Origin: an uncultured bacterium
GTDB taxonomy: Bacteria; Patescibacteriota; Minisyncoccia; Phycocordibacterales; PALSA-1337
Length of the DNA: 64,000 nucleotides
Reading direction: 5' to 3'
Assembly (NCBI GenBank): GCA_903870315.1
Contig: CAIQCJ010000002.1
Location: forward strand, 4,820-68,819
In this document: piece by piece, positions 10,819-27,238 of the stretch
How the letters are laid out: every line of letters starts with the position of its first letter
Position numbering within the stretch: position 1 is the stretch's first letter
Notes under the pieces: generated by a model
The model's input: the letters and a program-made list of their open reading frames with translations, nothing else
What the model was told of the DNA's origin: nothing
The model's database searches: none
Translations under genes and position numbers: made by a program

Positions 10819-10823
10819 AAAAT

Positions 10824-11816
10824 ATGATATCAACAGGACAACAAGCACTCGCATCCGACTTCATCGCTACTTCCGCAGGCGCGGGAAGCAGTGGTCAGGT
10901 TCCGAAATGCAATTCACTCGGAAAGATAGATAACTCTTTTCTTCCAATTAAATTCGGCGGTACCGGAGCGGATGGTGTGCTTTCAATCACATCGGGTACG
11001 ACAACAATAAGCGCCGGAAGTGCAAGTGTTCTTGTTAAAAATTACACATCCATATCGATCACAGGAACTGGAAAACTCGCATTTTCAAATCCCGGATCAA
11101 ATGGAACTTTAATATTTCTAAAATCGCAAGGAAACGTAACACTCACGTCATCAACCGCTCCAATGATTGATGCCTCTAATATGGGAGGTCCGGCAGGAAC
11201 GGCTGGATATTATGGCGATGGAACTAGCCCAACACAAGGAGCGGGCGGAAACTTTTATAGCGGTGGATCATGGGGACAAGGCGGTGGTGGTGGAGGTGGA
11301 GGTGGCGCACTTTCAGGTGGTGGCACTGGTTACTACAGTGGAAGTGTGCCTGCTGCCGGTGGAGGAACGACTGGTCTGAAAAGTATTCTCGCATCTTACG
11401 CTTACGCAAAAGGGACGAAACTCGTGACAGGTGCAGGCGGTGGTACAGGAAACAACGGAGCAGGTTATGGTGCATCAGGTGGTGCAGGTGGAGTCGGAGG
11501 CGGATGTTTGGTAATTGAATGCGCCGGTTATTTAAATTTCACAACAGCAAACGGAATTTCTGCCGCAGGATCGAATGGTGGAAACGGAACATCAAGTGGT
11601 AATGGAAATGGATTCGATGGTGGTGGGGGTGGTGGAGGCGGAGGTGGAACTGTAATTCTTTTATACAACCTTCTTACAGCAAATTCAGGAACAGTAAATG
11701 TTAATGGCGGAAACGGCGGGAACGGAGGTACTGGCGGAACTGGAAGTCCTGCCGGTTCAGGTGGTGGCGGGGGTAGCGGCTTGTCATTAGTAGCTCAAAA
11801 TACAGAATTTACATAA
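10824..11816 (+). CDS. Glycine-rich tail fibre-like protein with poly-Gly tracts
   Basis: 330 aa, runs of 8-10 Gly (GGGGGGGGG) and GxG repeats. Last gene of the tail module. Confidence 0.4.
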   Translation: MISTGQQALASDFIATSAGAGSSGQVPKCNSLGKIDNSFLPIKFGGTGADGVLSITSGTTTISAGSASVLVKNYTSISITGTGKLAFSNPGSNGTLIFLKSQGNVTLTSSTAPMIDASNMGGPAGTAGYYGDGTSPTQGAGGNFYSGGSWGQGGGGGGGGGALSGGGTGYYSGSVPAAGGGTTGLKSILASYAYAKGTKLVTGAGGGTGNNGAGYGASGGAGGVGGGCLVIECAGYLNFTTANGISAAGSNGGNGTSSGNGNGFDGGGGGGGGGGTVILLYNLLTANSGTVNVNGGNGGNGGTGGTGSPAGSGGGGGSGLSLVAQNTEFT

Positions 11817-11998: not shown

Positions 11999-12203
11999 AA
12001 ACCCTATTGAAAAAAGAATAGAGACTATTGAATCCGAAATAAAGCAGATCAAGGAAAATCACTTGGCACACATCAAGGAAATTTTGGCTGTGGTAAAAAC
12101 CAATCAGGAATGGATAATGCGATTTTTTTGGATTCTTACATCCGCTTCGGTCGCAGGACTAATTACTGGAATTATAAATTTATTAATCAAAACAAAAATA
12201 TGA
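11991..12203 (+). CDS. Putative holin-like small membrane protein (single C-terminal TM)
   Basis: MNENPIEKRIETIESEIKQIKENHL... then hydrophobic FFWILTSASVAGLITGIINLLI segment. Immediately upstream of, and overlapping, the endolysin gene. Confidence 0.3.
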   Translation: MNENPIEKRIETIESEIKQIKENHLAHIKEILAVVKTNQEWIMRFFWILTSASVAGLITGIINLLIKTKI

Positions 12204-13258
12204 ATGAACAATCAATTGCAACCGGAGCTTTAATATCTCCGCATGACTATAGGGACGGATATGCGTCAGCGGCAGTTGCAGAACAAATTTCTACACAAAT
12301 TAATCTGCCGGTATCTTACAAAACAATTCTCGCATCTCCGATGATGCAAGCGTTGGAGCCAGCATGCGTGTCGCACAGTGTTGTCGACAACCTAAAACTT
12401 TACTGGTTTAGAAAAACAGGGAAGTGGATTGACTTCTCTCCGAGATTTCTCGATATCCTCGCTAAAAGATTTGATGGTCAGGATCGTGCGACAGGCGGTA
12501 CGTATCCTCGTCTCGTATTCAAGCTCGCAGTTTTGTACGGATGTGCCACAACAGCGACACTACCGAACGACACATCGCTGTCAGTCTTGAATTATCGTGA
12601 TGATAGCAAGCTCACTCCTGAAGTATTCGCTGAAGCTAGTCAGTATAAGATTCCCGGCTACGTTTCTGTACCGCTCGATTTTCAAGGAACACGTCAATCA
12701 ATCTATTTATACGGAGCGATTTCGACACTCTTTCAAGTTGGTGATGAATTATGGACTCCATCATGGGCAGACAAGGACATTGACCCATTACGTCCGCCAA
12801 AAGTTATCCTTTCAGGGCATCAAATGTCGCCATTCGGATGGGAAGACAACGTGTACAACGATCTCCAAAATGAATGGAGCGATAAATGGGCAAATAAAGG
12901 ACAGGATCGCTATGATCCAAAAGCATGGTCGCCATACATCATCGAACAGTGGGCAGTCGCAGAAATTCCTCAAGATGTTCAGGACTTTTTGAAAGCTTTG
13001 CCCGCTCCAAATAATTTTCATTACAGTTGGCAAAGAGATCTTGCACTTGGCGACAATAACGATGATGTCAAATTCGCGCAGATCGCATTTATGATCCTAG
13101 GATTTCTCGCACCAATTCCTGCTAATGAGCTCGGCATCTTCGGTCCGAAAACTGCCGCAGCAAACGCTAAGTATCAGCAAGCACATAAGATCGCACCGGC
13201 ACCGAATCATATAGGTCCGCAAACGCGCGCGGCATTAAACGCACAATTTGCGATCTAG
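12200..13258 (+). CDS. Endolysin: N-terminal hydrolase domain (possibly Cys-peptidase-like) plus C-terminal peptidoglycan-binding domain (PG_binding_1-like)
   Basis: C-terminus DDVKFAQIAFMILGFLAPIPANELGIFGPKTAAANAKYQQAHKIAPAPNHIGPQTRAALN fits the G..V..lQ..L...G(x)FG..T..A...(Y/F)Q...G..G..T...L PG-binding pattern. Located between two holin-like genes. Confidence 0.5.
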   Translation: MNEQSIATGALISPHDYRDGYASAAVAEQISTQINLPVSYKTILASPMMQALEPACVSHSVVDNLKLYWFRKTGKWIDFSPRFLDILAKRFDGQDRATGGTYPRLVFKLAVLYGCATTATLPNDTSLSVLNYRDDSKLTPEVFAEASQYKIPGYVSVPLDFQGTRQSIYLYGAISTLFQVGDELWTPSWADKDIDPLRPPKVILSGHQMSPFGWEDNVYNDLQNEWSDKWANKGQDRYDPKAWSPYIIEQWAVAEIPQDVQDFLKALPAPNNFHYSWQRDLALGDNNDDVKFAQIAFMILGFLAPIPANELGIFGPKTAAANAKYQQAHKIAPAPNHIGPQTRAALNAQFAI

Positions 13259-13286
13259 GTCGAATTATTAATCAATAAAAAATATC

Positions 13287-13505
13287 ATGAATCCAACACT
13301 TAAAAGATATCTGATAAGCTCAGCCACAACGTTTGTAACAGCTTTTATCATTTCCGTCGGCGCACAACTTACAACGATGCAAATCACGCCAGAAACGCTC
13401 GGGTGGGGAATTGTTGCGTCTATCGGAGCAACAGCCTGCCGTGCGGCGATTAAAGCCCTAATTGAGGCTTTTTCAGGCACAACTGGTGATCCATTATTGG
13501 GTTAA
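13287..13505 (+). CDS. Small two-TM membrane protein (holin/antiholin-like)
   Basis: 72 aa, two hydrophobic segments (ATTFVTAFIISVGAQL; GWGIVASIGATACRAAI). Last gene of lysis cassette. Confidence 0.35.
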   Translation: MNPTLKRYLISSATTFVTAFIISVGAQLTTMQITPETLGWGIVASIGATACRAAIKALIEAFSGTTGDPLLG

Positions 13506-13550: not shown

Positions 13551-13579
13551 TTGCTTTATGTGTTAAAAGCTGATAAAAT
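13551..13579 (+). promoter_or_regulatory. Sigma70-like promoter upstream of fic/defense cargo: TTGCTT-17-TGaTAAAAT
   Basis: -35 ttgctt (13551-13556), 17-nt spacer, extended -10 tga taaaat (13571-13579), about 30 nt upstream of the Fic start. Confidence 0.35.
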
Positions 13580-13608
13580 CTAGGTTGTTAGAAATTAACA
13601 GTAAAAAC

Positions 13609-14691
13609 ATGGAAGACAACAGCCGAAAATTTGATCACAGAATTAAAAATCCTGAGCCTCATATCGTCGCTTTTTTGGCAGCGATAGATGAAATTCGTGG
13701 AGCTTTTCGCGTTGGTCTTCGCATGACTCCTCAAGCGATCACCAATCTGCACAAATCCGTACTCGTGACATCAGCTGGTGCTTCTACACGTATTGAAGGT
13801 GCAAAACTTTCTGACGAAGAAGTAAAGAAAATCATGGAAGGATTCTCAATCCAAAAATTCTCCGATCGTGATTCACAGGAAGTGCAGGGCTATCTTGAAA
13901 CGCTCAAAAATGTTTTCGACAATTATAAAGACTTGCCATTGCGAGAAAGCATAATTACTTCGCTCCACAAAGAGCTTCTAAAATATTCAAACAAGGACGA
14001 CTTACATCGTGGAGAATACAAGCATAAGGAAAATCTAGTCGGCGTTCTCGATGCCAAAGGAAATGTGGCAAAGATCATGTTTGAAACAACCCCAGCATAT
14101 CTCACACAAAAAGAGATGACTGAGCTTGTTGAATGGACACAGGAAGCACTAGAGAAAGAACGCTTCCATCCACTTCTAGTGATCGCCAATTTCCTTATTG
14201 AATTCCTGAAAATACACCCATTTGAAGACGGAAATGGTCGTATTTCGCGTGTTCTCACGAACTTACTACTTCTTCGACAAGGCTATTCATTTGCACAATA
14301 CGTCTCGCATGAGCAGATCATAGAGCAACGCAAGGATCAATACTATCTTGCTCTCCGATCATCGCAGGCGACATTTAGAAGTCAAACCAAGCCGGAAGGA
14401 CAAGAAGAAACGATCACACCTTGGCTCAACTTCTTCTTTTCAGTTGTGAAAGAACAGGCAGACAAGTCAATCGTGCTTGTAGAAGAAGAAACACACGAAG
14501 ACATAATGTCTCCAAAGCAAAACGAAGTCTTGGAATATCTCTCAAAGGTAAAAGAAGCTGGTCCAGCCGAGATTGTCAGAGAAACTGGAATTATTATGCC
14601 ATCGGTTCGTAAATCACTTGAACGGCTTGTCGAGCTTGGCAAAGTAAAAAGAATTGGTCGAGGCAGAGCAACGAGGTACGTAAAAATATAA
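13609..14691 (+). CDS. Fic family protein (Fic/Doc AMPylation-type domain) with C-terminal winged-helix-like region
   Basis: Canonical Fic motif HPFEDGNGRISR. ORF-track start 13585 is TTG; ATG (MEDNSRKF) at 13609 chosen. Confidence 0.8.
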   Translation: MEDNSRKFDHRIKNPEPHIVAFLAAIDEIRGAFRVGLRMTPQAITNLHKSVLVTSAGASTRIEGAKLSDEEVKKIMEGFSIQKFSDRDSQEVQGYLETLKNVFDNYKDLPLRESIITSLHKELLKYSNKDDLHRGEYKHKENLVGVLDAKGNVAKIMFETTPAYLTQKEMTELVEWTQEALEKERFHPLLVIANFLIEFLKIHPFEDGNGRISRVLTNLLLLRQGYSFAQYVSHEQIIEQRKDQYYLALRSSQATFRSQTKPEGQEETITPWLNFFFSVVKEQADKSIVLVEEETHEDIMSPKQNEVLEYLSKVKEAGPAEIVRETGIIMPSVRKSLERLVELGKVKRIGRGRATRYVKI

Positions 14692-14695
14692 AATT

Positions 14696-16636
14696 ATGAA
14701 AAATAGTACAAAAAAAATTAATCTAACATCATCAAATCTCAGTGAAGAAAAGCTTTATGATCTGAAAAAAATATTGCCAGAAGTATTTAGTGAAAATAAA
14801 ATTGATTGGGACAAATTAAAAACTGTCCTTGGCGACAACATTGATCCTCGACTTGAAAAATTCGGGCTTTCTTGGGCTGGAAAAAATAATGCCATACGTA
14901 GCGTTATAGTTCCAAGCAGTTCGACACTTCGTCCAGACACAAAGGCAAGCGTAAATTTCAACGTGACAGAAAATCTATTCATTGAGGGTGATAACCTAGA
15001 AGTTTTGAAACTTTTACAAAAGGCGTATTTTGAAAAAGTAAAAGTTATATACGTAGATCCTCCATATAACACTGGATCAGATTTTGTTTATAAAGATGAT
15101 TTTAAATCTCCAATCAAGGCATACCTTGAGCAGACAGGCCAAGTAACCAATGATGGACAGAGGCTTCAAACAAACAAAGAGACGAACGGACGATATCATA
15201 GTGATTGGCTTTCAATGATGTATCCTCGACTTAAATTAGCGTGGAATCTCCTAAGAGAAGATGGAATAATTTTTGTAAGTATTGATGACAATGAGGTCAA
15301 TCATTTACGATTAATCATGGATGAAATATTTGGCGAGGAAAACTATTTGAATGCGTTTTGTTGGGTTAATAATCTAAAGGGTCGTCAAATATCTGGATCA
15401 GGAGCGGCGAAAACATATGAATATGTATTGGCATATGCTAAGAAAATTGAAAATGTTGGAATATTTGAGATGTCTGTTGAGAAATTAAAAGCTTTGATGC
15501 CTAGTAGTTACAAAGGATTTAATTATGAGACTGAAAATGACGAGGGTGGAGACTTTGTTGTAAAAAATGAACTTTATAATACAAACTCTGCTTTCAACGA
15601 AGAAACTCGTCCTAGTTTGGTTTACAATATTCACTATAATTTCAAAACAAAAGAGGTAAAGTTTTCTAGTATTAAAGAAGATGTTGATTTTGCCGGCTTT
15701 ACGAAAATTACACCAAAGAAAAACAACAATGGGAGACACAAATATCATGCTTGGAGATGGAGCAAAGACAAGGTTGCTAATGAATTAGCTGATTTAAAAT
15801 TTGTCGAAACAAAAGAGGGTGCAAAGATCTATACAAAGATCCGTGAATATACAAGCACTGCATTAAAAGACATAATCACTGATATTACAACAAGTAATGG
15901 AGCGAGCGATATTAAAGAATTATTTAATGGTGCAAAATACTTTGACTATCCAAAGCCTGTTGATTTACTAAAAGTATTTATCAGCCAAATGGGGACCGAG
16001 GGTATTGTTTTGGACTTCTTCGCGGGTTCTGGTACAACAGCCCATGCGGTGATGAGTCTTAATGCTGAAGATGGTGGAAGTAGAAAATTTGTCTTGGTTC
16101 AACTACCTGAAAGTACTAATAAAGAAAGCGAGGCGTATAAGGATGGATACAAAACTATAGCAGATATTGCCATAGAGCGTATTCGTCGCGCAGCAAAAAA
16201 ACTGTCAGACAAAACGGGTTTCAAGGTATTTAGACTGGGAGCTTCTAACTATCCAGAAAATAACTTTGAGTTTGATCCAGATAAAAGCGAGGATGAAAAT
16301 AAAAAAGCTTTTACATCCTATCTTGTAAAAGCAAAACAAAGTTCGCTATTTGATGATGAAAATGGTCTAGATGTTGTGTATGAAAATATTGTAAAAGAAG
16401 GTTTTTCGCTGAACTCTGTAATAGAGGAAAGAAAACTTGGCAAAAATAATCTTTACATCGTGAAGGACGGTGAACGCAAAATTCATATTTGTCTAGATAA
16501 AACAGTTGACAAAGATACGATCAAAGAACTCTCTGATCGCAATTACAAAGATTCAGTATTTATATGTATTGATAATGCTTTGGATGACACGGGGAAGGCG
16601 AACCTGGGTCTTAATCTAGAACTTAAAACTATTTAA
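14696..16636 (+). CDS. mod: Type III restriction-modification system methyltransferase (Mod, beta-class N6A/N4C MTase)
   Basis: Motif IV DPPY (KVIYVDPPYNTGSDF) precedes motif I FxGxG (VLDFFAGSGTTAHAV), i.e. beta-class order typical of Type III Mod. Immediately followed by res. Confidence 0.85.
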   Translation: MKNSTKKINLTSSNLSEEKLYDLKKILPEVFSENKIDWDKLKTVLGDNIDPRLEKFGLSWAGKNNAIRSVIVPSSSTLRPDTKASVNFNVTENLFIEGDNLEVLKLLQKAYFEKVKVIYVDPPYNTGSDFVYKDDFKSPIKAYLEQTGQVTNDGQRLQTNKETNGRYHSDWLSMMYPRLKLAWNLLREDGIIFVSIDDNEVNHLRLIMDEIFGEENYLNAFCWVNNLKGRQISGSGAAKTYEYVLAYAKKIENVGIFEMSVEKLKALMPSSYKGFNYETENDEGGDFVVKNELYNTNSAFNEETRPSLVYNIHYNFKTKEVKFSSIKEDVDFAGFTKITPKKNNNGRHKYHAWRWSKDKVANELADLKFVETKEGAKIYTKIREYTSTALKDIITDITTSNGASDIKELFNGAKYFDYPKPVDLLKVFISQMGTEGIVLDFFAGSGTTAHAVMSLNAEDGGSRKFVLVQLPESTNKESEAYKDGYKTIADIAIERIRRAAKKLSDKTGFKVFRLGASNYPENNFEFDPDKSEDENKKAFTSYLVKAKQSSLFDDENGLDVVYENIVKEGFSLNSVIEERKLGKNNLYIVKDGERKIHICLDKTVDKDTIKELSDRNYKDSVFICIDNALDDTGKANLGLNLELKTI

Positions 16637-16639
16637 TTT

Positions 16640-19258
16640 ATGAAGCTTAAATTTGACGCAAATCAAGATTTTCAGATCGATGCGATAAATGCGATCGCTG
16701 ATCTTTTTGAAGGTCAAAGCAAGACAGCAAGTAAAATGATAGCTGGTAGTGGGCTTCTTGGTATTTATCCAAATATTCTCACTCTTACAAAAGAGGAGAT
16801 ATTAATAAATACGGCTAAAGTTCAGGATCATAATGGGATCTTGAATGGTGGTTTGGTAAAAGATTTAGATTTCTCTATTGAAATGGAAACTGGTACGGGT
16901 AAAACTTATGTCTATATACGAACCATTTTTGAATTAAATAGAAAATATGGTTGGAAAAAGTTTATTATTCTTGTGCCTTCAGTTGCAATTCGCGAAGGAG
17001 TCATAAAGACACTTAAAATAACTAAGGATCATTTTGCTGATCTTTACGATAATGTTCCATATCGTTTTTATGAGTATCAGTCAAAAAATATTTCTCAGGT
17101 TAAACATTTTGCAGATAGTAGTAATATCGAAATAATGGTTATGACGATTGGAGCTTTCAACAAAGACACGAATGTTCTATATAGTGAGCGAGATCAAATG
17201 CATGGTGAACAACCGATTAGCTATATTCAAAAGACTAACCCTATTTTAATTTTGGATGAACCTCAAAATATGGAGGGAGATTCGACAAAAAAGGCGATCG
17301 ATAATTTTAATTCAATATTTCGTTTGCGATATTCTGCAACACACAAGAATTTGTACAACCTAGTCTATCAACTTGCTCCATATGATGCCTATCAACTCGG
17401 ACTAGTTAAAAAGATAGAAGTATTTTCTGTTGTTGATCAAGACGATGCAACATCAGCCCCACTAATAAATTTAATTGAAGTTAAACCTAGTAAGACTGCC
17501 CTCAAAGCTCAAGTGGAGATAATATCAAAAGACGATCAGGGTGAAGGAAAGAAAAAAAAGATCAGCGTAAAACAGGGTGATGACCTAGCAAAAAAGACCA
17601 ACAATGCAACATATGAAGGTTATGTTATTGAAGAACTCACAGCTGACGCTCCAGATTTTGGCTCAATCGGCTCTATTCGCTTTAGAAATAATATACAGAT
17701 TAAGAAGGGCGAAGGTATTGGTGGAAATCGTGAAGACATAATGAAAGAGCAGATTACTGAAACAATCAAATTGCATTTTGAAAAGAAGAAAAAACTTAGA
17801 GAGTTTGGAATTAAAGTTCTTTCATTATTTTTTATTGATCGTGTTGATAATTATGTGAAAGACGATGGTTTTATCAGACAAACATTCATAAAGCAATTCA
17901 ATATTCTTAAAAAAGAATACGGTGAAAGTGGCGCAAACGTAAATACTGTCCATAAGGGATACTTTGCAATGAAGAATGCAAATGAGTACATTGAGCGTGA
18001 ATCTGCAATAGCTGAAAACAAAGAGGCTTACGAACTGATAATGAAAGACAAGGAAAGATTACTTTCTTTTGAGGAACCAACAGAATTTATCTTTTCACAC
18101 TCTGCACTTAAGGAAGGTTGGGACAATCCAAATATTTTTAATATTTGCACACTTAATCTTACATCTTCGACGATGAAAAAACGTCAAGAAATTGGTCGAG
18201 GTATGCGACTCTGCGTTAATCAGGATGGAGAACGAATCTTCTTAAAAAATATTAATCTTTTGTCAGTGATTGCAAACGAGAGTTACTCCAGCTATGTCGC
18301 AGGCCTTCAGTCTGAGTTTGTTGATGATGGTATATACAAAGCACCGCCATTACCATACAACGCAAAAAGAAAAATCACAGTTAAACTCAAAAGAGGATTC
18401 AATACTGACGAAAATTTCAAAGCAATATGGGATCGTATATCAAAAAAGACAAAATACGTAGTTCGAGTTGATTCTGGCCGTGTTCTTGAGCGAGCAATAA
18501 AAAGAATCAATGAATTAAAGATACTTAAACCTCAAATTAAAATTGAGCGTGCAGGAATATCTATTGCACAGGAGGGTATCGCGGCAAGTATAATAGGCGG
18601 TCAATCTTTTGAACTTACACAAAACAAGCGTACGATTGATTGCGTTGGACTTATTAAAAGTGAGACAAAACTCACAAGAGACACAGTGGCAACAATTTTA
18701 GAAAAGTCTAAAAACCTTAAATCTTTCTTCAATAATCCTGAGAAATTTATTTATGAGGTGACGAAAATAATAAAAGAAGAATTGGTACATGATTATATTG
18801 AGCAGATAAGCTATGAAATTATTCCTGAAAAATACAATGTGGATCAATTTGAAAATATTTCAAGCTATGTTGATGCGACAGAGCCAGTTAAACACTCAAT
18901 CTATGAAGCCATTGTCTATGATTCCGAAGTTGAACAACAATTTGCAGTAGATCTTGATCAGGATGAAAGAATTAAATTATTTATAAAACTTCCAGCTTGG
19001 TTCAAGGTTGAAACACCGGTGGGAACATATAACCCAGACTGGGCTATTGTAACAGCAAAAAGAGATCTGCAAGGGAAGGAGGATCATGAAAAAGTCTATT
19101 TTATAATTGAGACAAAGGGCGGTACAAACCTGAGATCGTCCGAACGTGCAAAGATAGATTCAGCCAAGAAGCACTTTGAAGTGATCTCGGTTAACTATAA
19201 AGAGATCAACAAAGGCTATAAACAATTTAATCAGGAATGCTTGATTAATAAGCAATAA
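16640..19258 (+). CDS. res: Type III restriction enzyme Res subunit (SF2 helicase plus C-terminal PD-(D/E)xK endonuclease)
   Basis: Walker A METGTGKTYV, motif II ILDEPQNM, C-terminal YNPDWAIV ... IIETKG nuclease motif. 3-nt spacing after mod. Confidence 0.85.
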   Translation: MKLKFDANQDFQIDAINAIADLFEGQSKTASKMIAGSGLLGIYPNILTLTKEEILINTAKVQDHNGILNGGLVKDLDFSIEMETGTGKTYVYIRTIFELNRKYGWKKFIILVPSVAIREGVIKTLKITKDHFADLYDNVPYRFYEYQSKNISQVKHFADSSNIEIMVMTIGAFNKDTNVLYSERDQMHGEQPISYIQKTNPILILDEPQNMEGDSTKKAIDNFNSIFRLRYSATHKNLYNLVYQLAPYDAYQLGLVKKIEVFSVVDQDDATSAPLINLIEVKPSKTALKAQVEIISKDDQGEGKKKKISVKQGDDLAKKTNNATYEGYVIEELTADAPDFGSIGSIRFRNNIQIKKGEGIGGNREDIMKEQITETIKLHFEKKKKLREFGIKVLSLFFIDRVDNYVKDDGFIRQTFIKQFNILKKEYGESGANVNTVHKGYFAMKNANEYIERESAIAENKEAYELIMKDKERLLSFEEPTEFIFSHSALKEGWDNPNIFNICTLNLTSSTMKKRQEIGRGMRLCVNQDGERIFLKNINLLSVIANESYSSYVAGLQSEFVDDGIYKAPPLPYNAKRKITVKLKRGFNTDENFKAIWDRISKKTKYVVRVDSGRVLERAIKRINELKILKPQIKIERAGISIAQEGIAASIIGGQSFELTQNKRTIDCVGLIKSETKLTRDTVATILEKSKNLKSFFNNPEKFIYEVTKIIKEELVHDYIEQISYEIIPEKYNVDQFENISSYVDATEPVKHSIYEAIVYDSEVEQQFAVDLDQDERIKLFIKLPAWFKVETPVGTYNPDWAIVTAKRDLQGKEDHEKVYFIIETKGGTNLRSSERAKIDSAKKHFEVISVNYKEINKGYKQFNQECLINKQ

Positions 19259-19262
19259 ATTT

Positions 19263-20429
19263 ATGAAAGAAAGAATTAAGGATACAATACAAGACTGTAA
19301 CATCAATTTCCTGATTGGATCCGGACTTTCTTCTCCGTTCTTAAAAACACTCGGAAATATCGAAATACTACTTACAAAATTAGATGACCAAAATATTACT
19401 GACACAGAAAAGAAAGTGATTCGAGCATCACTCTACAAAAAATTTTTTGAAGATGCGATCCTTAAAAATCCCAAGATATTAGAGTCAGATATTGATGCTA
19501 ATTCTGCACTGAAGCATTATCACGACTTTCTGAAGTCAATTAACTCAATTCTTCTTAGACGTAAAAGTACGATATTAAGTAAGGAAGTTAATTTATTTAC
19601 TACCAACTTCGATATTTTTTTAGATAAAGCTCTCGAAGATGTATCAGTTGAATACAACGATGGATTCAATGGTCGATTTCTCCCTCAATTTAGTCTAACC
19701 AACTTCAAAAAATCAAGGTTTAAAAAGAGCCTGCATTATGACAACATATCAGAAATACCTGTATTTAATTTGCTTAAATTACATGGATCACTTTCTTGGA
19801 AACTGATTGATAAAACGGAAAATAGTGAAATAGTATTTTCTTCTGACTTGTCCAATCTTAAGGATATACAAAGTAAGATACCGAGCATGGAACACCTGAT
19901 TGATGTTCAAGCTGACTCAACAGTAGAGACCCTAGTAAATGCTGTCCCGGGCAAAGTCCTTGATCCATCAGTTCAAACCTTTATGGAAGCATATGAAAAG
20001 CTCTCGATTGTAAATCCTAATAAAGATAAGTTCCGTCACACACTACTTAATCAGACTTACTACGAAATGCTTAGGATATATTCGAATGAATTGGAAAAAG
20101 AAAATACCGTTTTGTTTGTCATGGGTTTTTCTTTTGCAGACGAGCATATCCGTGAAATTACACTTCGCGCAGCCAATTCTAACCCGACAATGATGATCTA
20201 TATATTTGCATATAGCTCAAAGAGTAAAGCGGACATTCAATCTAAATTCGATTCAAAAAATATAAAAAATAAGAATATTGTAATTGTCGGTCCAGAAACT
20301 AAAGAGGACGGTGATGACAAATTTAAATACGACCTAGAGACAATTAACGCCCAAATTTTTGATTGTCTTCTTGAAAAAGAGGATACAAAAGAGTCGGCAA
20401 CATCAGATGTGCCTAAGGAGGCTAAATAA
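19263..20429 (+). CDS. SIR2-like (SIR2_2 family) NADase-type defense protein
   Basis: NFLIGSGLSSPF (GxGxS N-terminal block), TTNFD, KLHGSLSW and VMGFSFADEHI blocks characteristic of defense-associated SIR2-like domains. Directly upstream of HerA-like ATPase. Confidence 0.7.
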   Translation: MKERIKDTIQDCNINFLIGSGLSSPFLKTLGNIEILLTKLDDQNITDTEKKVIRASLYKKFFEDAILKNPKILESDIDANSALKHYHDFLKSINSILLRRKSTILSKEVNLFTTNFDIFLDKALEDVSVEYNDGFNGRFLPQFSLTNFKKSRFKKSLHYDNISEIPVFNLLKLHGSLSWKLIDKTENSEIVFSSDLSNLKDIQSKIPSMEHLIDVQADSTVETLVNAVPGKVLDPSVQTFMEAYEKLSIVNPNKDKFRHTLLNQTYYEMLRIYSNELEKENTVLFVMGFSFADEHIREITLRAANSNPTMMIYIFAYSSKSKADIQSKFDSKNIKNKNIVIVGPETKEDGDDKFKYDLETINAQIFDCLLEKEDTKESATSDVPKEAK

Positions 20430-20433
20430 TTTT

Positions 20434-22335
20434 ATGAATAATGATTCAATCGCAGAAGACGCAATTTTCAAAATAGGAAAGGTCATCTCGGTTGATGGCA
20501 GGACAATTAGAGTTGGCATAGATAAAACTAAAAATTCTTCGCATCTTGTATACAAAGGTGAGCTTCTAAAAAATATTTCGGTGGGTGGTTACATAAAAAT
20601 TATTAAGGGGTTCACAAAAATAATTGGCAAGGTTGAGGGAGAATTTATTAATGAAGATAAACAGTTCGGTAAAAAGGGTTATGGTAGCGAGAAGGAAAAG
20701 ATCAATAGAGTCTTGAGCGTCAGTCTACTCGGTTTTTTTAGAGGTAGTCACTTTGAGAGAGGTATTAAAGAATTGCCACTTATTGATAATGAATGCTTTT
20801 TACTTCACAACAGAGAATTTGATCAAGTACATAATTTCATCAAAGATAATGATGATCCTATTACAATTGGTGCATTAGCATTAGAAAAAGGTCAGTCAAT
20901 AAAAGTCGGTATAAATAGTTTATTTGCTAGTCATATTGGAATATTTGGTAACACTGGTAGCGGAAAATCTTACACTCTTGCAAAAATTTATCGTGAACTT
21001 TTTGAGAAATATAAGAATGAAATAAAATTCAAGAGAAATGCTAGGTTTTTTCTGATTGATTTTAACGGAGAATATATAGACACATCTTCGAGAAGTGATA
21101 GTGTAATCATTGATAAAAAATATAAAAGCACCTATAAATTGTCTACTAGAAATGACAAGGGTGACAAGTACCCGATTCCAATAGATGCAATAAGAGAAGC
21201 TGAATTCTGGGTTATTTTTCTTCAGGCAACAGAAAAAACTCAAGCTCCGTTCTTAAAGAGGGCTGTTGAGAGTGTTTATCTTCAGGGCAAGATACAAGTT
21301 GAATCAGATTTAAAAGACATGATCGCAAAGATGATTTTTACTGCGACAACTGATGGTGATAAGACCTTGGAGAAAACAGTCGTAATGAATCTTCTTGAAG
21401 AAATAAAGGATTGCTTGGGGGGTAATACAACAATAGATGATCTTATTTCAGACTATCGCCTCAATCTGCATTATCATAGTAAAAATAATAAATATTACTA
21501 CGGCACTGATTCAGCCACCGCAATGTATAGCGACAATGCTTCATACAAGCAAACTGTTGTTGACGATAAAATTAATACGCTTTCCATAAACACGAAACAA
21601 ATATCTCCTATTGATGAAGTTAGACTTCAAATTGTGATTCAGTACTATGAAGACATAATTAGAGGTTTTTCAAACAAGGAACATCTCTCTCCACTGCTCA
21701 AACGATTAGATAAAAGAGTGGATCATTTAAAGAAGGTGATCAACGTCATAAATGACGCTGAAACCCCAATGCCAAAGCAGAAAAATCTTATTATTGTATC
21801 TCTAAAAGATGTAAATATTCAGATAAGAAAGATCATCCCGATGCTTTTATGTAGAAAGCTGTATAATGATAAAAAAGAAAGTAACAATGATCAGACATAT
21901 CTCAATCTTATAGTTGATGAGGCACACAATATTTTGTCTGAAAATTCAGAAAGGGAAAGTGAGCAATGGAAAGATTACCGCCTTGAGACATTCGAGGAAA
22001 TTATTAAGGAAGGTCGAAAGTTTGGTGTTTTCTTAACAATTGCAAGTCAACGTCCATCGGATATTTCACCAACGATCATATCTCAATTACATAATTACTT
22101 TTTACATAGATTGATAAATAATGAGGATATACGAGCAGTAGAAAAAACAATTTCATATCTCGATAAAGTATCTTTTGAATACCTTCCAATTCTTCCTACG
22201 GGTACATGTATAGTTGCTGGACTTTTGGCAAATGTGCCAGTAGTGGTTGATATTGGTAGAATTATTCCACCTAAGCACGAACCAAAAAATAAGACTCGCA
22301 CGCTTATTGATAAATGGAAAACAAATAAAAAATAA
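20434..22335 (+). CDS. HerA/FtsK-like ATPase (SIR2-HerA partner)
   Basis: ATG at 20434 preceded by aaggagg RBS. N-terminal barrel-like KIGKVISVDGRTIRVG. Walker A GIFGNTGSGKSYTL, Walker B LNLIVDEAHNIL. Confidence 0.7.
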   Translation: MNNDSIAEDAIFKIGKVISVDGRTIRVGIDKTKNSSHLVYKGELLKNISVGGYIKIIKGFTKIIGKVEGEFINEDKQFGKKGYGSEKEKINRVLSVSLLGFFRGSHFERGIKELPLIDNECFLLHNREFDQVHNFIKDNDDPITIGALALEKGQSIKVGINSLFASHIGIFGNTGSGKSYTLAKIYRELFEKYKNEIKFKRNARFFLIDFNGEYIDTSSRSDSVIIDKKYKSTYKLSTRNDKGDKYPIPIDAIREAEFWVIFLQATEKTQAPFLKRAVESVYLQGKIQVESDLKDMIAKMIFTATTDGDKTLEKTVVMNLLEEIKDCLGGNTTIDDLISDYRLNLHYHSKNNKYYYGTDSATAMYSDNASYKQTVVDDKINTLSINTKQISPIDEVRLQIVIQYYEDIIRGFSNKEHLSPLLKRLDKRVDHLKKVINVINDAETPMPKQKNLIIVSLKDVNIQIRKIIPMLLCRKLYNDKKESNNDQTYLNLIVDEAHNILSENSERESEQWKDYRLETFEEIIKEGRKFGVFLTIASQRPSDISPTIISQLHNYFLHRLINNEDIRAVEKTISYLDKVSFEYLPILPTGTCIVAGLLANVPVVVDIGRIIPPKHEPKNKTRTLIDKWKTNKK

Positions 22336-22339
22336 TTAT

Positions 22340-23092
22340 ATGTCAGAATATTACAACGCCAACAGAACAAGAAACATCTACGATCCAGAAAGTCCGGAAC
22401 CTTTTAAGTTGTCACGATCAAAAATCGAGCTCTATATGAAATGCCCGAAATGCTTCTATATGGATCGCAGACTTGGTGTTGGACAGCCACCGGGCTTCCC
22501 GTTTGCCCTAAATTCGGCCGTAGATGCCCTCCTAAAGAAAGAATTCGACATACATAGAGCTAAGAAGACTCCTCATCCGCTTATGAAGGCGTACGGCCTT
22601 GATATGGTCCCTTTTGCACACGAGAAGATGGGAGAGTGGCGAGAGAATTTCAAAGGGGTCCAGTATCACCATGAAGCTACAAATTTCATTATGACCGGAG
22701 CTGTGGACGACTTGTGGGTGAATGGGGAAGGGGAAATCACTGTTGTTGATTACAAATCAACAAGTAAACCTGCAAAAGTAACTCTAGATGCTGACTGGCA
22801 GATTGGATACAAGCGTCAGATGGAAATGTATCAATGGTTACTACGCAAGCTAGGCTTCAAAGTGTCAAATACTGGTTATTTTGTATATTGTAATGGAAAA
22901 ACTGATCGCACAGCATTTGATGGAAAACTAGAATTTGATATTGATTTATTACCCTACACTGGAAGTGACTCGTGGGTCGGCGGAGTCCTCCATGAGATCA
23001 AGCAGTGTCTTGATGGCGAAATGCCAGATTCGAGTCATGATTGCGACTTCTGTAATTTTAGAAAAGCCGCAAATGCAGTTGATAAAAAATAA
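22340..23092 (+). CDS. PD-(D/E)XK nuclease, Cas4/RecB-like with Cys cluster
   Basis: N-terminal CPKC, core GAVDDLWV ... EITVVDYKS (D ... E-x-K), C-terminal HDCDFCNF Cys cluster. ATG at 22340 (MSEYY) chosen over upstream in-frame start. Confidence 0.5.
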   Translation: MSEYYNANRTRNIYDPESPEPFKLSRSKIELYMKCPKCFYMDRRLGVGQPPGFPFALNSAVDALLKKEFDIHRAKKTPHPLMKAYGLDMVPFAHEKMGEWRENFKGVQYHHEATNFIMTGAVDDLWVNGEGEITVVDYKSTSKPAKVTLDADWQIGYKRQMEMYQWLLRKLGFKVSNTGYFVYCNGKTDRTAFDGKLEFDIDLLPYTGSDSWVGGVLHEIKQCLDGEMPDSSHDCDFCNFRKAANAVDKK

Positions 23093-23134
23093 TCTGTCCT
23101 TCATTTAAAAACAAAAATATTGTAAAATTACCAA

Positions 23135-23743
23135 ATGGATCAAATTATCTACATTTTAATAAACGAAGCGATGCCCGGATATGTAAAAGTTGGTAAGACT
23201 ACAGATTTAGAGCAAAGGGTCCGCGATCTATCGCGTGCTTCAGGAGTTCCTCTTCCTTTTGAAGTTTTTTATGCTGCAAAAGTGAAAGACATGCATGAAG
23301 CTGAAAAATTAATACATGATGCCTTTGGAGATACACGCGTAGCTCCGAACCGAGAATTTTTTAAGATTGCTCCAGAAAGAATTGTGGCGGCCTTAAAATT
23401 GGCTCAATTAGAAAATGTAACCCCACATAGCGACTTCGTTGATTCTCCTGAAGAACAAAAAGCTCTAGATAACGCTAGGAAGAATCGGGCAAAATTTAAT
23501 TTTGAAATGGTAAAAATAATGCCGGGTAGTATTTTAACTTTCACTCGAAATCCAGAGATAACATGTAAGGTTATCAATGACACACAAATTGAATATAATG
23601 GGGAAATAAAAAGTCTTTCTGAGGCGGCAAAACTAGCTCTTGGGATTGATTACCAAGTGGCCGGGACATTGTACTGGGAATATGATGGGGAGACATTGGA
23701 TGAACGCCGAAGGCGCTTCGAAGAAGGTAACGATCAAGAATAA
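23135..23743 (+). CDS. T5orf172 (GIY-YIG-like) domain protein with DUF4357-like C-terminus
   Basis: IYILINEAMPGYVKVGKTTDLEQRVRDL ... FEVFYAAKVKDMHEAEKLIHDAF ... NREFFKI matches the T5orf172 pattern. Confidence 0.5.
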   Translation: MDQIIYILINEAMPGYVKVGKTTDLEQRVRDLSRASGVPLPFEVFYAAKVKDMHEAEKLIHDAFGDTRVAPNREFFKIAPERIVAALKLAQLENVTPHSDFVDSPEEQKALDNARKNRAKFNFEMVKIMPGSILTFTRNPEITCKVINDTQIEYNGEIKSLSEAAKLALGIDYQVAGTLYWEYDGETLDERRRRFEEGNDQE

Positions 23744-23747
23744 AATT

Positions 23748-23906
23748 ATGTCATTAGATGGTAAAGATCCAGACGAAATAATAGAGATTGCTGAAATAGC
23801 ACAAAACCAAGGTGTTGATATTGAGGATGCTGAAAAAATAAAAGACCTTATGGATGATGAAGGACTGGACGAAGAAGATGCTGCGGAGTTGGTGGATTTA
23901 ATTTAA
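23748..23906 (+). CDS. Small acidic hypothetical protein (52 aa)
   Basis: MSLDGKDPDEIIEIAEIAQNQGVDIEDAEKIKDLMDDEGLDEEDAAELVDLI, ATG 4 nt after the upstream stop. Very acidic. Confidence 0.3.
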   Translation: MSLDGKDPDEIIEIAEIAQNQGVDIEDAEKIKDLMDDEGLDEEDAAELVDLI

Positions 23907-23917
23907 TAAATAATTTG

Positions 23918-24793
23918 ATGACATTTTCTGAAAACAAAGTTCTAAAATATTTTGAAAAAAATAAAACAACGATACTGACACTGTCATTTTTAGCGTTGGT
24001 CTTTATTGCACTCAATATCTCCGGAAATGCTGTGTACTATAAATTTTTTAATACCAATATAGATCAAGCGACCACCACAGCAGATATATCAACAGGCGGT
24101 TCTCCTTCAAGCTGCAACGTCCTCGGTATAAATTTGCACGGTGAGCTCTATACATATATTCCAAAACAAAATGATGTTGATCCAACGACAAACTATGATG
24201 TGGTTTCTAGCGAGAATGTTGTATCGCTTATCCAGAAAGCTGATCAGGATAGCACCATAAAGGCAATCCTTATAGAAGTAGATTCACCCGGCGGAGAACC
24301 CGTTGCGGGAGAGGAAATTGCGAATGCCCTAAAGACCGCTACCAAGCCAACCGTTGCAGTGATTAGGCAAACTGGAGCATCTGCCGCCTATTGGGCAATC
24401 AGCAGTGCAGGAAAAATATTTGCATCAAGAAATTCTGATGTTGGTAGTATCGGCGTTACCGAATCATACGTTCAAGATCCGACAACGAGCAAAAACTTTG
24501 TACAGATCTCAGTAGGGAAGTATAAAGACACCGGTAATCCAGCTAAACCCCTAACAGCTGATGACAAAGCTCTTCTTTTGAGAGATATCAAAATTGTTCA
24601 ACAGAATTTTATTAATGATGTTGCGACGAATCGAAATCTTTCGGTAGATGCGGTAACAAAAATTGCGGATGGCTCATCAGTTCTTGGAGATAAAGCTAAG
24701 TCAGTTGGTTTGATTGATGAGATTGGAGATGAAACGTCAGCACAAAATTATTTGTCACAAAAAATAGGAACGCCGGCATCTCTTTGTTGGTAA
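23918..24793 (+). CDS. SppA/S49-family membrane serine peptidase (signal peptide peptidase-like)
   Basis: N-terminal TM, AILIEVDSPGGEPVAGEEIANAL, Ser nucleophile context TGASAAYWAIS, Lys in VGKYKD. ORF-track start 23915 is TTG; ATG at 23918. Confidence 0.55.
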   Translation: MTFSENKVLKYFEKNKTTILTLSFLALVFIALNISGNAVYYKFFNTNIDQATTTADISTGGSPSSCNVLGINLHGELYTYIPKQNDVDPTTNYDVVSSENVVSLIQKADQDSTIKAILIEVDSPGGEPVAGEEIANALKTATKPTVAVIRQTGASAAYWAISSAGKIFASRNSDVGSIGVTESYVQDPTTSKNFVQISVGKYKDTGNPAKPLTADDKALLLRDIKIVQQNFINDVATNRNLSVDAVTKIADGSSVLGDKAKSVGLIDEIGDETSAQNYLSQKIGTPASLCW

Positions 24794-24800
24794 AATAAAA

Positions 24801-25076
24801 TTATTTTATATTTGCGATTCCTTTGAAGACCTCCATTTCCATAAGAACGTGATTATAAAGTTCGTCAGAAATTTCGTCATTCTTAAATTCAACTTTCCGT
24901 TTCAAATTATTTACTTCTAAAAAGAGTCTTCTTTTTCGCCCATCAAAATTATATAGAACCACTAGTGTAAAAGATCCATCGAGCTTCTCGTGGTACCAAA
25001 GCGTGGCTTTTTCTCCTTCCCAGATATGACCATTTTTACGTAGGGTCTCAAATGGATCGATTTCATATTTCGACAT
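24801..25076 (-). CDS. Hypothetical protein (91 aa)
   Basis: Only minus-strand ORF in the prophage cargo region. No motif. Confidence 0.3.
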   Translation of the reverse strand: MSKYEIDPFETLRKNGHIWEGEKATLWYHEKLDGSFTLVVLYNFDGRKRRLFLEVNNLKRKVEFKNDEISDELYNHVLMEMEVFKGIANIK

Positions 25077-25422: not shown

Positions 25423-26367
25423 ATGTTACTTCGAGATGCAATCGAAAAATATTTGCTCTGGAAGGGTACTGAGACTCGTGTAGCAGCTAAAGTCTACAGA
25501 CCATTCCTTGAGCATTTCTACACCTACGTTGGCAACAGAGATACCCTCGACATAACCCTTGAGGACATCTCCGGATTCCGAGCATCGTTGCGATTAAAAT
25601 ACAACGATGGCAACATTGCGAACCATAACAATGTGATCAAGAATTTCTACAAATGGCTTGAAGCACTCAGGGCAACAACTGTACATCCATTCCTGATACG
25701 CAACCCAAGATTCCAAGCTCCTGAGAGACCGGTAGCGACACCGGACGAGGTTAAAAGAATGTGCGCTACCCTTAATGAGAATTCCTACGGGGATCTTATA
25801 AGACTTATTGCGATCAGACTCATGTGGGAGTCGATGATCAGGGTAAGCGAGCTTGTGGACCTAAATATTAACGACATCGTGTCGCAAAAGAATTACACAG
25901 AAATTGTAGGTAAGAAAAATTATAAGAAACGATGGATTATGTGGTCGCCAGAAACCCATCAACTCCTGCTAACGTATGTCACCAAGCGAAAAGCGTATCT
26001 TGATCACGAAGCATTGTTCGCTCATGAGAAAGGCGGTGTAGCACAAAGAATGAATACTAGAAGCGTTGAGCGATGGTTAAAAATTGCTCGAGAAAAAGCG
26101 GGTATTGAAAAAGAAATATCTTGTCACGCATTGAGACATGGCGGAGCGCACGAGCTGGTCAAGAAAGGTGCGAGCCTAAAATTCATTGGATTGATCCTCG
26201 GACACTCAGATAACAACCCTCGAGCCGGCATGCAATATCTACGATTCAGTAAGGAGGAATCCCTAGATGTAGTAAACAAATTTGTGGGACTAAGATTCAA
26301 TCCGAATGAAATTCCGCCTCAATTAGAGCCTTTAGTCGGAGCGTATGGAGCTTACAGCATGGCGTGA
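25423..26367 (+). CDS. int: Tyrosine-type phage integrase / site-specific recombinase
   Basis: C-terminal catalytic region HALRHGGAHELV ... LGH ... MQYL (R, HxxR, Y). N-terminal SAM-like core-binding region. Confidence 0.85.
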   Translation: MLLRDAIEKYLLWKGTETRVAAKVYRPFLEHFYTYVGNRDTLDITLEDISGFRASLRLKYNDGNIANHNNVIKNFYKWLEALRATTVHPFLIRNPRFQAPERPVATPDEVKRMCATLNENSYGDLIRLIAIRLMWESMIRVSELVDLNINDIVSQKNYTEIVGKKNYKKRWIMWSPETHQLLLTYVTKRKAYLDHEALFAHEKGGVAQRMNTRSVERWLKIAREKAGIEKEISCHALRHGGAHELVKKGASLKFIGLILGHSDNNPRAGMQYLRFSKEESLDVVNKFVGLRFNPNEIPPQLEPLVGAYGAYSMA

Positions 26368-26409: not shown

Positions 26410-26628
26410 ATGACAAAAGGAGAGGAAAGTAGTAAAAAACCAAAAGGAGGTCGTGGTAAAGTCGAATCGCTTCGAAATCAAGCCATTGTGACCTTATACG
26501 AGACTGATCATAAGCTCTACAACACAAATACGTTGGGGAAGTTATTCGGGCGCGATAGGAAGACCGTTCAAGGCATTATTAAGAGGTTTGCACCTTCACA
26601 GCAAAATAAGACGGCTATCGGCCAATAA
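26410..26628 (+). CDS. Small basic HTH protein (excisionase / transposase-HTH-like)
   Basis: 72 aa, LRNQAIVTLYETDHKLYNTNTLGKLFGRDRKTVQGIIKRF helix-turn-helix-like segment. Directly downstream of int. Promoter-like TTGTAA-17-TGaTAAATT ends about 7 nt before the ATG (possible leaderless mRNA). Confidence 0.4.
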   Translation: MTKGEESSKKPKGGRGKVESLRNQAIVTLYETDHKLYNTNTLGKLFGRDRKTVQGIIKRFAPSQQNKTAIGQ

Positions 26629-26849
26629 AAGGCCTAGGCGGGCTCAAAAGAGTAATCCACTTGTCGCACTTGCTATATGTTGTGGGATGTTTATACTTAA
26701 TGGTGTGATCATTGAAAACTAGATTCTCCACGAAACTTCGGGTGATAGGGGAACTTTTATAGCCGCTTCGAGCGGCATTACAAATACGACACTATGTCGC
26801 ACAATATATCTTTTGCGAAGTGATAAGATATGAAAAAACCGATTATATC

Positions 26850-27173: not shown

Positions 27174-27238
27174 TTTTGTTGGCGCTGAGGCGCATTAATA
27201 TTTAAAAATCCTTGAACTATGTACTTATTTTACAATAA

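Follow-up and report, generated by a model that had tools for sequence, protein, structure and literature searches.

Gene Content and Organization of the Operon

The DNA analyzed here is a 64,000-nt stretch of contig CAIQCJ010000002.1 (the window), in which positions are counted from its first letter. Between 13.55 and 24.8 kb, the window contained a nine-gene, co-oriented operon that was flanked by phage lysis genes and a tyrosine integrase gene (Table 1). The operon encoded, in order, a Fic-domain AMPylase, the methyltransferase (Mod) and restriction (Res) subunits of a Type III restriction-modification (R-M) system, a SIR2-like NADase, a HerA-like ATPase, a PD-(D/E)XK exonuclease, a T5orf172 protein, an acidic protein of 52 amino acids (acid52), and an S49/SppA-like peptidase. 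The open reading frame (ORF) listing and translation placed the start of the plus-strand gene run at 13,585/13,609 and its end at 24,793, in agreement with the co-orientation, ORFs, and coordinates described in an earlier note on this DNA. Comparison with related prophages revealed that the genes from Mod to HerA are exchanged for other defense systems, and this segment is referred to as slot 1; the position between acid52 and the integrase is referred to as slot 2.

Table 1. Features of the window at and around the defense operon.
Feature	Position	Strand	Evidence or remark
Phage head-to-tail structural genes	138-11816		PHROG and Pfam matches
Lysin	12110-13258	+	PG_binding_1 domain; small membrane ORFs on either side
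72-aa membrane protein	13287-13505	+	With the lysin, left border of the island (12110..13505)
Promoter-like element	13551..13579	+	TTGCTT-17 nt-TAAAAT, 5' of Fic
Fic-domain AMPylase, SoFic-like, C-terminal winged helix-turn-helix	13609-14691	+	Pfam Fic 7e-17; PADLOC SoFic 3.7e-43
Variable slot 1 (swappable defense cassette)	14692..22339	+	Here Type III R-M and SIR2-HerA
Mod, Type III methyltransferase	14696-16636	+	PADLOC MTase_III 2.5e-169 (residues 6-643); Pfam N6_N4_Mtase 2.7e-29
Res, Type III restriction subunit	16640-19258	+	PADLOC REase_III 1.5e-248; Pfam ResIII 5.5e-17, RE_endonuc 1e-33
SIR2-like NADase	19263-20429	+	PADLOC SIR2 4.4e-62; Pfam SIR2_2 4e-13
HerA-like ATPase	20434-22335	+	PADLOC HerA 2.3e-174, full length; Pfam DUF87 6e-20
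RecB/Cas4-family PD-(D/E)XK exonuclease, four conserved Cys	22340-23092	+	Pfam PDDEXK_1 1e-15
T5orf172 (GIY-YIG-like) protein	23135-23743	+	Pfam T5orf172 5.9e-18; PADLOC candidate single-gene system PDC-S57 1.6e-69
acid52, 52-aa acidic three-helix protein, conserved frame gene	23748-23906	+	ORF call
S49/SppA-like serine peptidase, membrane-anchored, slot 2 cargo	23918-24793	+	Pfam Peptidase_S49 1.4e-28; N-terminal hydrophobic segment
91-aa gene	24801-25076	-	Convergent with the operon
Tyrosine integrase	25423-26367	+	Pfam Phage_integrase 7e-26; PHROG integrase 8e-34; kept in relatives
72-aa basic helix-turn-helix-like protein	26410-26628	+	Kept in relatives
Prophage right end and host junction	26785..26822	.	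Conserved sequence …ATACGACACTATGTCGCACAATATATCTTTT…

Six of the eight junctions within the operon (Fic/Mod, Mod/Res, Res/SIR2, SIR2/HerA, HerA/nuclease, and T5orf172/acid52) consisted of TAA, three to four A/T nucleotides, and ATG, which implies translational coupling. The spacing of 0–5 nt claimed in the earlier note was correct for these six (3–4 nt), but not for the junctions between the nuclease and T5orf172 (42 nt) and between acid52 and the S49 peptidase (11 nt). Gaps of at most 5 nt were found at 6 of 8 operon junctions vs. only 2 of 32 co-directional host gene pairs in the window; the operon spacing is unusually tight for this genome. Unrelated defense systems in the segment 14691–23748 abut without space for a ribosome-binding site, and the breakpoints of cassette exchange described below fall exactly at such junctions.

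The promoter-like element 5' of Fic, which had been proposed to serve the cargo, failed a scan with the Escherichia coli consensus, although its hexamers were conserved in distant relatives. The TTG..TT and ATA..AT columns were invariant in two loci (L010 and L014) whose Fic proteins are only 66–70% identical to that of the window. Because these columns are invariant in intergenic DNA that is otherwise unalignable, the element is probably a real promoter. Promoter-like sites overall were not in excess in the E. coli-consensus scan of the region (39 found vs. 50 expected).

Cassette Exchange among Sister Prophages

An exact look-up of the T5orf172 protein retrieved eight lake-metagenome contigs with the same prophage and, next to it, the same host genes. 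BLASTN showed that five of these (L001, L003, L005, L007, and L008) were 99.9–100% identical to the window over the stretch that each covers. The other three (L002, L004, and L006) matched only the window segment from 13,039/13,348 to 14,701 (~90.5–90.9% identity) and the segment from 22,333 onwards (96.6–97.8%). Homology to L002 and L004/L006 ended at 14698–14701 and restarted at 22333–22334, and these breakpoints correspond to the stop codon of Fic and the start codon of the nuclease. Between them, the 7.6-kb core of the window was exchanged for 7.5–7.8 kb of other systems. The replacement in L002 encoded HsdM (5e-185), HsdS, and HsdR (9e-179), among which PDC-M50A and a pair of ThsB-like TIR genes were interspersed, and that in L004/L006 encoded MTase_III (5e-67), a REase_III-like helicase, and Ppl (1e-22).

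The guanine-plus-cytosine (GC) content of all three cassettes was 0.335–0.358 (0.335–0.345 for the window cassette), as compared to 0.44 for the phage backbone, 0.42 for Fic, 0.43 for the nuclease, and 0.42 for the host. Fic, in the left flank, had diverged further than the right flank did, a difference that fits independent histories of recombination on either side. Furthermore, Fic was 98.6% identical as a protein in L002/L004 but only ~90.5% identical as DNA, which indicates that it is under purifying selection.

The earlier note had called the interval between the lysis genes and the integrase a defense hotspot and had proposed a comparison of related prophages. That comparison revealed cargo that was swapped for other defense systems between flanks kept at 90.5–97.8% nucleotide identity. 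The flanking phage genes were conserved and the cargo differed in L002 and L004/L006, with yet other cargos in L009–L015 and L186, and in every variant examined the cargo matched anti-phage systems of PADLOC at the level of hidden Markov models (HMMs). On this comparative basis, the locus is very likely a true prophage defense hotspot.

Defense Systems in Slot 1

The Pfam and PADLOC searches that the earlier note had asked for supported its Fic, Mod, Res, SIR2, and HerA assignments, and its count of at least three stacked defense systems was borne out by three recognized systems and one catalogued candidate. The Mod translation contained the DPPY motif as VDPPYNTG and the FxGxG motif (FAGSG) as FFAGSGTT, and the Res translation, which starts after a gap of 3 nt, contained GTGKT and DEPQ. 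The pair resembles Type III systems of the EcoP15I type in the order of mod and res, in the DPPY and FxGxG motifs of Mod, and in the superfamily 2 helicase and C-terminal endonuclease of Res; it differs in that the window copy is prophage-borne and lies within a longer operon.

SIR2-HerA systems deplete nicotinamide adenine dinucleotide (NAD+) upon infection (PMC11472057, PMC11514289). Similar to these systems, the window contained adjacent genes that encode a protein with a SIR2_2 domain and an ATPase of the HerA type, in which the NAD-binding, His, and Walker motifs are all intact: GSG and HG (LHGS) in SIR2, and Walker A (GNTGSGKS) and Walker B (VDEAH) in HerA, which follows SIR2 after 4 nt. 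In contrast to the characterized systems, the window pair scored far under the equivalog cut-offs and was located 4 nt 3' of a Type III R-M system in the same operon. With scores far below the NCBIfam equivalog cut-offs, SIR2, HerA, and the Fic protein described below are divergent relatives of the characterized proteins.

Conserved Genes Framing Slot 1

Fic forms the left side of the frame. Its assignment, which the earlier note had based on HPFEDGNGR, agreed with both profiles, the PADLOC SoFic match spanning residues 52–366. The translation contained HPFEDGNGR, with an inhibitory-helix motif (STRIEG) upstream, and the full HxFx(D/E)GNGRxxR motif was present as HPFEDGNGRISR. Fic amino-acid identity was 66–70% in L010, L014, L015, and L085. 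SoFic-type proteins cause abortive infection by AMPylation, and in E. coli a small antitoxin gene, AS1 (47 aa), lies directly 3' of SoFic (PMC12249575). The window protein resembles this SoFic in its Fic core motif, N-terminal SxxxEG inhibitory helix, C-terminal winged-helix domain, and comparable length. It differs in its low score against the SoFic equivalog and in the lack of a 47-aa AS1-type gene downstream; no such gene was found directly 3' of Fic, where only 4 nt separate the Fic stop codon from Mod.

The first gene on the right side encodes a nuclease for which the Pfam match, motifs, terminal cysteines, and fold agreed with the label of Cas4-like PD-(D/E)XK nuclease given in the earlier note. 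Alignments identified invariant residues C35/C38, C235/C238, D124, D137-Y-K139, and Q160..Y164 (QxxxY). Its AlphaFold2 model (predicted local distance difference test score, pLDDT, 85.9) matched in Foldseek the nuclease domains of AdnAB and AddB, RecE, lambda exonuclease, MGME1, EXO5, and the Argonaute-associated Cas4-like ACE1, as well as Cas4 SSO0001 (E = 4.9e-4); a PDB sequence search with the nuclease profile returned spurious matches only. The modeled fold thus places the protein among the end-processing exonucleases of the RecB/Cas4 family. It shares with Cas4, AddB, RecE, and lambda exonuclease the fold, the motifs D...D-x-K and QxxxY, and a pair of Cys residues at each terminus. However, the window nuclease is a stand-alone protein of 250 aa with 2+2 Cys and without a CRISPR association: it scored 29.3 bits against TIGR00372 (cas4; cut-off 65), and no cas genes were found among its neighbors in any locus examined.

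In most relatives, the nuclease gene immediately followed the cassette; it was missing in L179. The family is large, with at least 585 matches in GTDB genomes and at least 8000 clusters, and the best 120 matches were all at least 70% identical. Among the matches listed, genome contigs and source names were almost all from the Candidate Phyla Radiation (CPR). In 80 CPR loci, its upstream neighbors included both housekeeping genes (cyclophilin, TspO, tRNA synthetases, and SecDF) and defense genes (ResIII, AAA_21, OLD/GajA, AriA, and Ppl), and this mixture led to the rejection of the nuclease as a defense-specific gene. It is a conserved frame gene, neither swappable cargo nor specific to defense.

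The acidic 52-aa protein reported in the earlier note was also present and represents the other right-hand frame gene. It had no Pfam, PADLOC, or NCBIfam match, and nothing credible was found in Pfam at E≤10. Its identity was 76–88% in every phage relative examined, including those of a second phage lineage (L179), and the family comprised ~112 clusters, none of which was annotated. The protein is built from two E-I-x-x-x-x-G-L-D-x-E-x-A repeats and was modeled by AlphaFold2 as three helices (pLDDT 89.6), for which a fold search retrieved no significant match (best E ~1).

In all four further unrelated contexts, restriction or other defense genes were located within 10 kb of acid52, mostly upstream. 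These contexts contained (1) a Type IIG enzyme and a PLD-SNF2 helicase; (2) Type III R-M and Mrr; (3) Type I R-M, OLD, and T5orf172 (L189); and (4) an EcoRI-type methyltransferase, GmrSD, Mrr, a C5 methyltransferase, and HATPase/Ymh, followed by the nuclease, a 141-aa gene, and acid52 (L191:2587-10156). The last of these is a chromosomal island without phage genes within 10 kb, and it adjoins scpA of the scpAB-ftsW-murG-gltX-M23 cluster, on the side opposite to the window prophage. An analogy between acid52 and the SoFic antitoxin AS1 (PMC12249575) was rejected: acid52 lies 9 kb from the window Fic, and such a role is unlikely because acid52 occurs in loci without Fic. The strong conservation of acid52, its 3' position after the defense cassette in the examined prophages, and the presence of R-M, Mrr, GmrSD, or OLD in all four contexts fit an accessory function. 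It may tentatively be proposed, at rather low confidence, that acid52, on its own or together with the nuclease that usually precedes it, represents a new accessory of mobile defense islands that is specific to CPR. It could be a DNA-mimic-like or antitoxin-like modulator that restrains R-M, Ppl, Mrr, and PD-(D/E)XK nucleases while an island becomes established in its new cell; alternatively, the protein might both mark and stimulate the exchange of cassettes at this locus.

T5orf172 Protein, S49 Peptidase, and Slot 2

The earlier label of "T5orf172/DUF4357" was only half correct: the T5orf172 domain was detected at the N-terminus by Pfam and the PDC-S57 match was full length (residues 2–197 of 202), but no DUF4357 was found by Pfam at E≤10. 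In L011, L012, L015, and L085, the nuclease and acid52 genes were directly adjacent, and this comparison identifies T5orf172 as an insertion between the two. Another T5orf172 gene adjoined the Type I R-M/OLD island in L189.

The S49 peptidase conformed to the earlier description as an SppA/S49 membrane peptidase, its Peptidase_S49 match being above the cut-off, although it missed the NCBIfam SppA_dom cut-off (137.1 vs. 155.45 bits). It had 3281 homologues, mostly of ~290 aa and 50–60% identical; the few with a source name were S49/SppA peptidases, mostly from Patescibacteria metagenome-assembled genomes (MAGs). The most fitting reading is an accessory gene of host origin, a CPR-type SppA. Elsewhere, slot 2 contained MetK (L009:11734-12732 and L010:11764-12699), a SET-domain protein (L011:10971-11423), or DnaJ-like, TPR, S49, and ClpS proteins (L186:11858-17787). 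The slot 2 genes of these four loci are metabolic or proteostasis morons rather than defense genes.

The convergent 91-aa gene located beyond slot 2 had no family match, and nothing credible was found in Pfam at E≤10. It was 79% identical in L009, L010, and a Campbellbacteria prophage (L182), and may be a regulatory or excision-related gene. The lineages in which it is 79% identical include those with a different integrase (L182/L186).

Distribution of the Locus among Related Phages

Wider relatives were collected from IMG/VR and GTDB loci anchored on the nuclease. Slot 1 contained a Type IV methyl-directed restriction endonuclease, two methyltransferases, a PDC-S36/PD-T4-1-like protein, and PDC-S19 in L009; Fic, a Type I-like R-M system, and a cyclase (2e-104) of the cyclic oligonucleotide-based antiphage signaling system (CBASS) type in L010; a C5 methyltransferase and a ZorD/DpdE-like SNF2 helicase, straight after the lysin and 72-aa protein, in L011; another HerA in L012; and Fic, a Mod-like protein, and Ppl in L015, which is a Ca. 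Nomurabacteria MAG. A Ppl-like protein of ~950 aa was located directly 5' of the nuclease (L004, L014, L015, and L085) or of acid52 (L179).

The complete genome of a Ca. Campbellbacteria (CP064977.1) showed the same architecture from the tail fiber through the integrase. The order was tail fiber, lysin, methyltransferases with an AAA_13 ATPase (slot 1), nuclease (77%), a 146-aa gene, acid52, then DnaJ-like, TPR, S49, and ClpS proteins (slot 2), the 91-aa gene, and the integrase. A second phage lineage (L179/L180), whose lysin is a different one and whose integrase shares only 26% identity, carried methyltransferases, a DEAD/ResIII helicase, and Ppl, followed by acid52 (88% identical) and S49 (72%). 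The recurrence of the lysis-to-integrase layout in the wider relatives, the Campbellbacteria genome, and the second lineage shows that the hotspot is general in a mosaic group of Patescibacteria temperate phages. Other IMG/VR scans added little: those with the S49 and HerA proteins retrieved no relatives, that with T5orf172 only two loci, and that with the acid52 alignment only four contigs, all of which were already among the relatives. In the one metagenome scan, for which the nuclease was used, chromosomal CPR copies dominated the matches, and only one phage-lineage locus (L102) was gained.

Prophage, Host, and Boundaries

Positions 1–26.8 kb of the window are, with good confidence, the right part of a siphovirus-type prophage that lies beside the M23-peptidase/gltX/murG/ftsW cluster of a Patescibacteria (Paceibacteria-type) bacterium. 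Upstream of the operon, PHROG and Pfam identified a complete morphogenesis block that encoded a MuF-like protein, a protease, an HK97-type capsid, an adaptor, and tail tube, tape-measure, tail, and fiber proteins. At the end of this tail module, a 330-aa protein (10824-11816) without PHROG or Pfam match consisted mostly of glycine-rich tracts, with runs of 8–10 consecutive Gly, and is presumably a fiber or receptor-binding protein. The left border is also kept in relatives: the lysin and 72-aa protein were located directly 5' of the cargo in L011 (82–83% identity), and the 72-aa membrane protein in L002 (97%). An ENA contig (ERZ27313057 k141_256063) was 100% identical to the window and extended further upstream, and the 10 kb 5' of the window was found to be phage DNA encoding an AAA_24 protein, a RepO-like protein, a terminase-like protein, a portal-MuF fusion, and two methyltransferases. 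These two orphan DNA methyltransferases of the early region (L097:2921-5343, ~4–6.3 kb 5' of window position 1), a ParB_N-fused N6/N4 enzyme of 421 aa and a C5 enzyme of 386 aa, are typical anti-restriction self-protection genes, present beside the phage's own R-M cargo.

At the right end, homology to five relatives was lost after the common sequence ATACGACACWRTGTCGCACAATATATCTTTT at ~26,815–26,822; four of these had unrelated flanking DNA, and the fifth, IMG/VR contig L009, itself stops ~100 nt later. An inverted repeat (CGACA-CTA-TGTCG) was present in the phage right end (26790-26815), just inside the host junction, and is a candidate integrase-binding or core-type site. The integration site contained neither a tRNA nor an Rfam family, and neither attL nor a repeat of the right-end sequence was found in the 10 kb upstream of the window, which is still phage DNA. 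Host genes began at 27239 (M23 peptidase, gltX, murG, ftsW, and scpAB).

The surrounding structural, lysis, and integrase genes and the Patescibacteria host match the earlier proposal that the cargo is prophage-borne. The remark on a small-genome host is also correct, since proteins of Ca. Nomurabacteria, Taylorbacteria, and Jorgensenbacteria MAGs shared clusters with the nuclease and Fic at 90% identity, and the related genome loci were all Patescibacteria-type MAGs, save some automatically labeled records. The L002 prophage was 96.6–98% DNA-identical to that of the window and was located at the equivalent site (M23-gltX-DUF7282-murG-ftsW; L002:13686-20609 vs. window 26819–33000), whereas its host GltX and M23 proteins were only 53–55% identical to those of the window host, and the phage-host junction contained an additional polysaccharide-deacetylase gene. 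This suggests either a very broad host range of a CPR temperate phage or an assembly chimera. Published work describes Patescibacteria prophages of ~44 kb and genomic islands with R-M systems (PMC12455944); the literature searched contained no account of this hotspot.

Interpretation of the Locus and Alternative Explanations

Overall, the locus is most probably best explained as a prophage defense operon in which a conserved frame encloses two variable slots. One compact operon would extend between the lysis genes and the integrase, probably starting at the promoter-like element, with Fic as the left frame and the RecB/Cas4-like exonuclease and acid52 as the right frame. Slot 1 would receive horizontally acquired low-GC defense cassettes, in this case Type III R-M and a SIR2-HerA NAD-depletion system, and slot 2 would receive assorted cargo, in this case the S49/SppA-like peptidase, with T5orf172 (PDC-S57) inserted between the two right-hand frame genes. 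The operon would be expressed in the lysogen, where Mod would methylate host and prophage DNA and Res would cut unmethylated incoming DNA. SIR2-HerA, Fic, and possibly T5orf172 may then provide later or abortive lines of defense when other phages superinfect. The cassettes may move between related phages and CPR chromosomal islands via homologous recombination in the conserved flanking genes.

Several points weigh against this interpretation. The NCBIfam cut-offs were missed by Fic (43.8 bits vs. 550 for NF046030, the S. oneidensis SoFic equivalog), SIR2 (84.9 vs. 500 for SIR2_antiphage), and HerA (134.5 vs. 800 for HerA_antiphage), and the promoter-like element scored below the threshold of the E. 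coli-type promoter scan. Only three cassette types were observed among the near-identical prophages, and the depth of the census was limited because the scans were swamped by chromosomal nuclease copies. The completeness and inducibility of the prophage are unproven, since the left end and attL were not reached. In addition, the host is uncultured, and we infer expression, anti-phage activity, and the recombination route from the genes.

The hotspots of P2-like phages and P4-like satellites, for which homologous recombination in conserved flanks was proposed, provide the closest precedent (Rousset et al., 2022; PMC9122126). As in those elements, conserved phage genes frame anti-phage content that differs between near-identical prophages, and the cargo is located near an end of the integrated element. 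In contrast, the window prophage resides in a Patescibacteria/CPR host, belongs to another phage type, and has a frame that consists of Fic, a RecB/Cas4-like nuclease, and a small acidic protein. Its cargo is arranged in a single operon with 3–4-nt junctions, predicted to be translationally coupled, and comprises two adjacent slots, the second of which contains non-defense cargo.

An alternative explanation, which appears unlikely, is that part of the operon serves the phage, with the nuclease and acid52 acting in recombination or counter-defense during infection. The two could represent an end-processing nuclease and a DNA-mimic-like inhibitor of host nucleases, and the R-M system could be used for host-DNA degradation or for the exclusion of rival phages in lytic growth. 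The nuclease has the fold of the phage recombination exonucleases RecE and lambda exonuclease, and the early region of the phage encodes an AAA_24 protein and the orphan methyltransferases typical of anti-restriction. The small size, high acidity, and 88% identity of acid52 across lineages whose integrases share 26% would also suit such a role, although no fold or family match supports DNA mimicry and acid52 also occurs in the L191 chromosomal island, away from phage genes. In addition, the frame genes are predicted to be transcribed with the defense cassettes and not with the early genes.

It is even less probable that the cargo and integrase form a separate integrative defense island that merely neighbors a prophage. 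Lysis genes were located immediately 5' of the cargo in L011, L186, and L179 (the last with its own Amidase_2 lysin), the integrase was 3' of the cargo in L009, L015, and L102, and IMG/VR viral contigs of 32–40 kb held structural or lysis genes together with the cargo. The sister prophages were homologous without a break across the lysis genes and Fic, and again from the nuclease as far as their shared right end, which lies a short distance beyond the integrase. The left end of the prophage, a possible place for another integrase, was not reached, but no second integrase was present in the 10 kb upstream of the window. Against these observations stand the foreign GC content of the cassette and the occurrence of the nuclease-acid52 pair, with upstream R-M, GmrSD, and Mrr, in the L191 island.

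Least probable of all is the proposal of the earlier note that the 3' genes form a new module, i.e., that the nuclease, T5orf172, acid52, and S49 represent a single multi-gene defense system: these genes are co-oriented, adjacent, and identical or nearly so in all near-identical prophages, T5orf172 matches a defense-candidate family, and acid52 is associated with defense islands, but the segment that is swapped extends no further than the stop codon of HerA, a 42-nt gap unlike the coupled junctions elsewhere precedes T5orf172, the nuclease family is huge and often beside housekeeping genes, S49 resembles an ordinary CPR SppA, and the genes do not co-occur beyond the closest relatives, where T5orf172 and acid52 are found with MetK in place of S49 (L009), acid52 and S49 without T5orf172 (L012), the nuclease and acid52 only (L015), or acid52 and S49 without the nuclease (L179), which largely refutes the proposal.

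Implications for Immunity in Patescibacteria

CPR/Patescibacteria genomes are tiny and are regarded as having little classical immunity; to our knowledge, most of them lack CRISPR. The frame-and-slot operon suggests that a temperate phage would supply its CPR lysogen with a layered stack of R-M, NAD depletion, Fic, and a GIY-YIG-like nuclease, and sister prophages of the same lakes carry alternative stacks at exactly the same position. The concept of a prophage defense hotspot is already established in enterobacterial phages, and what is new here is its occurrence in an under-studied host group. The conserved frame, with the lysis genes/Fic on one side and the nuclease and acid52 on the other, provides a handle for mining CPR metagenomes, and acid52 is the small defense-island-associated family that is left worth following. 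More generally, a sizeable share of the variable immune repertoire in these streamlined bacteria may be phage-borne and exchanged as cassettes.

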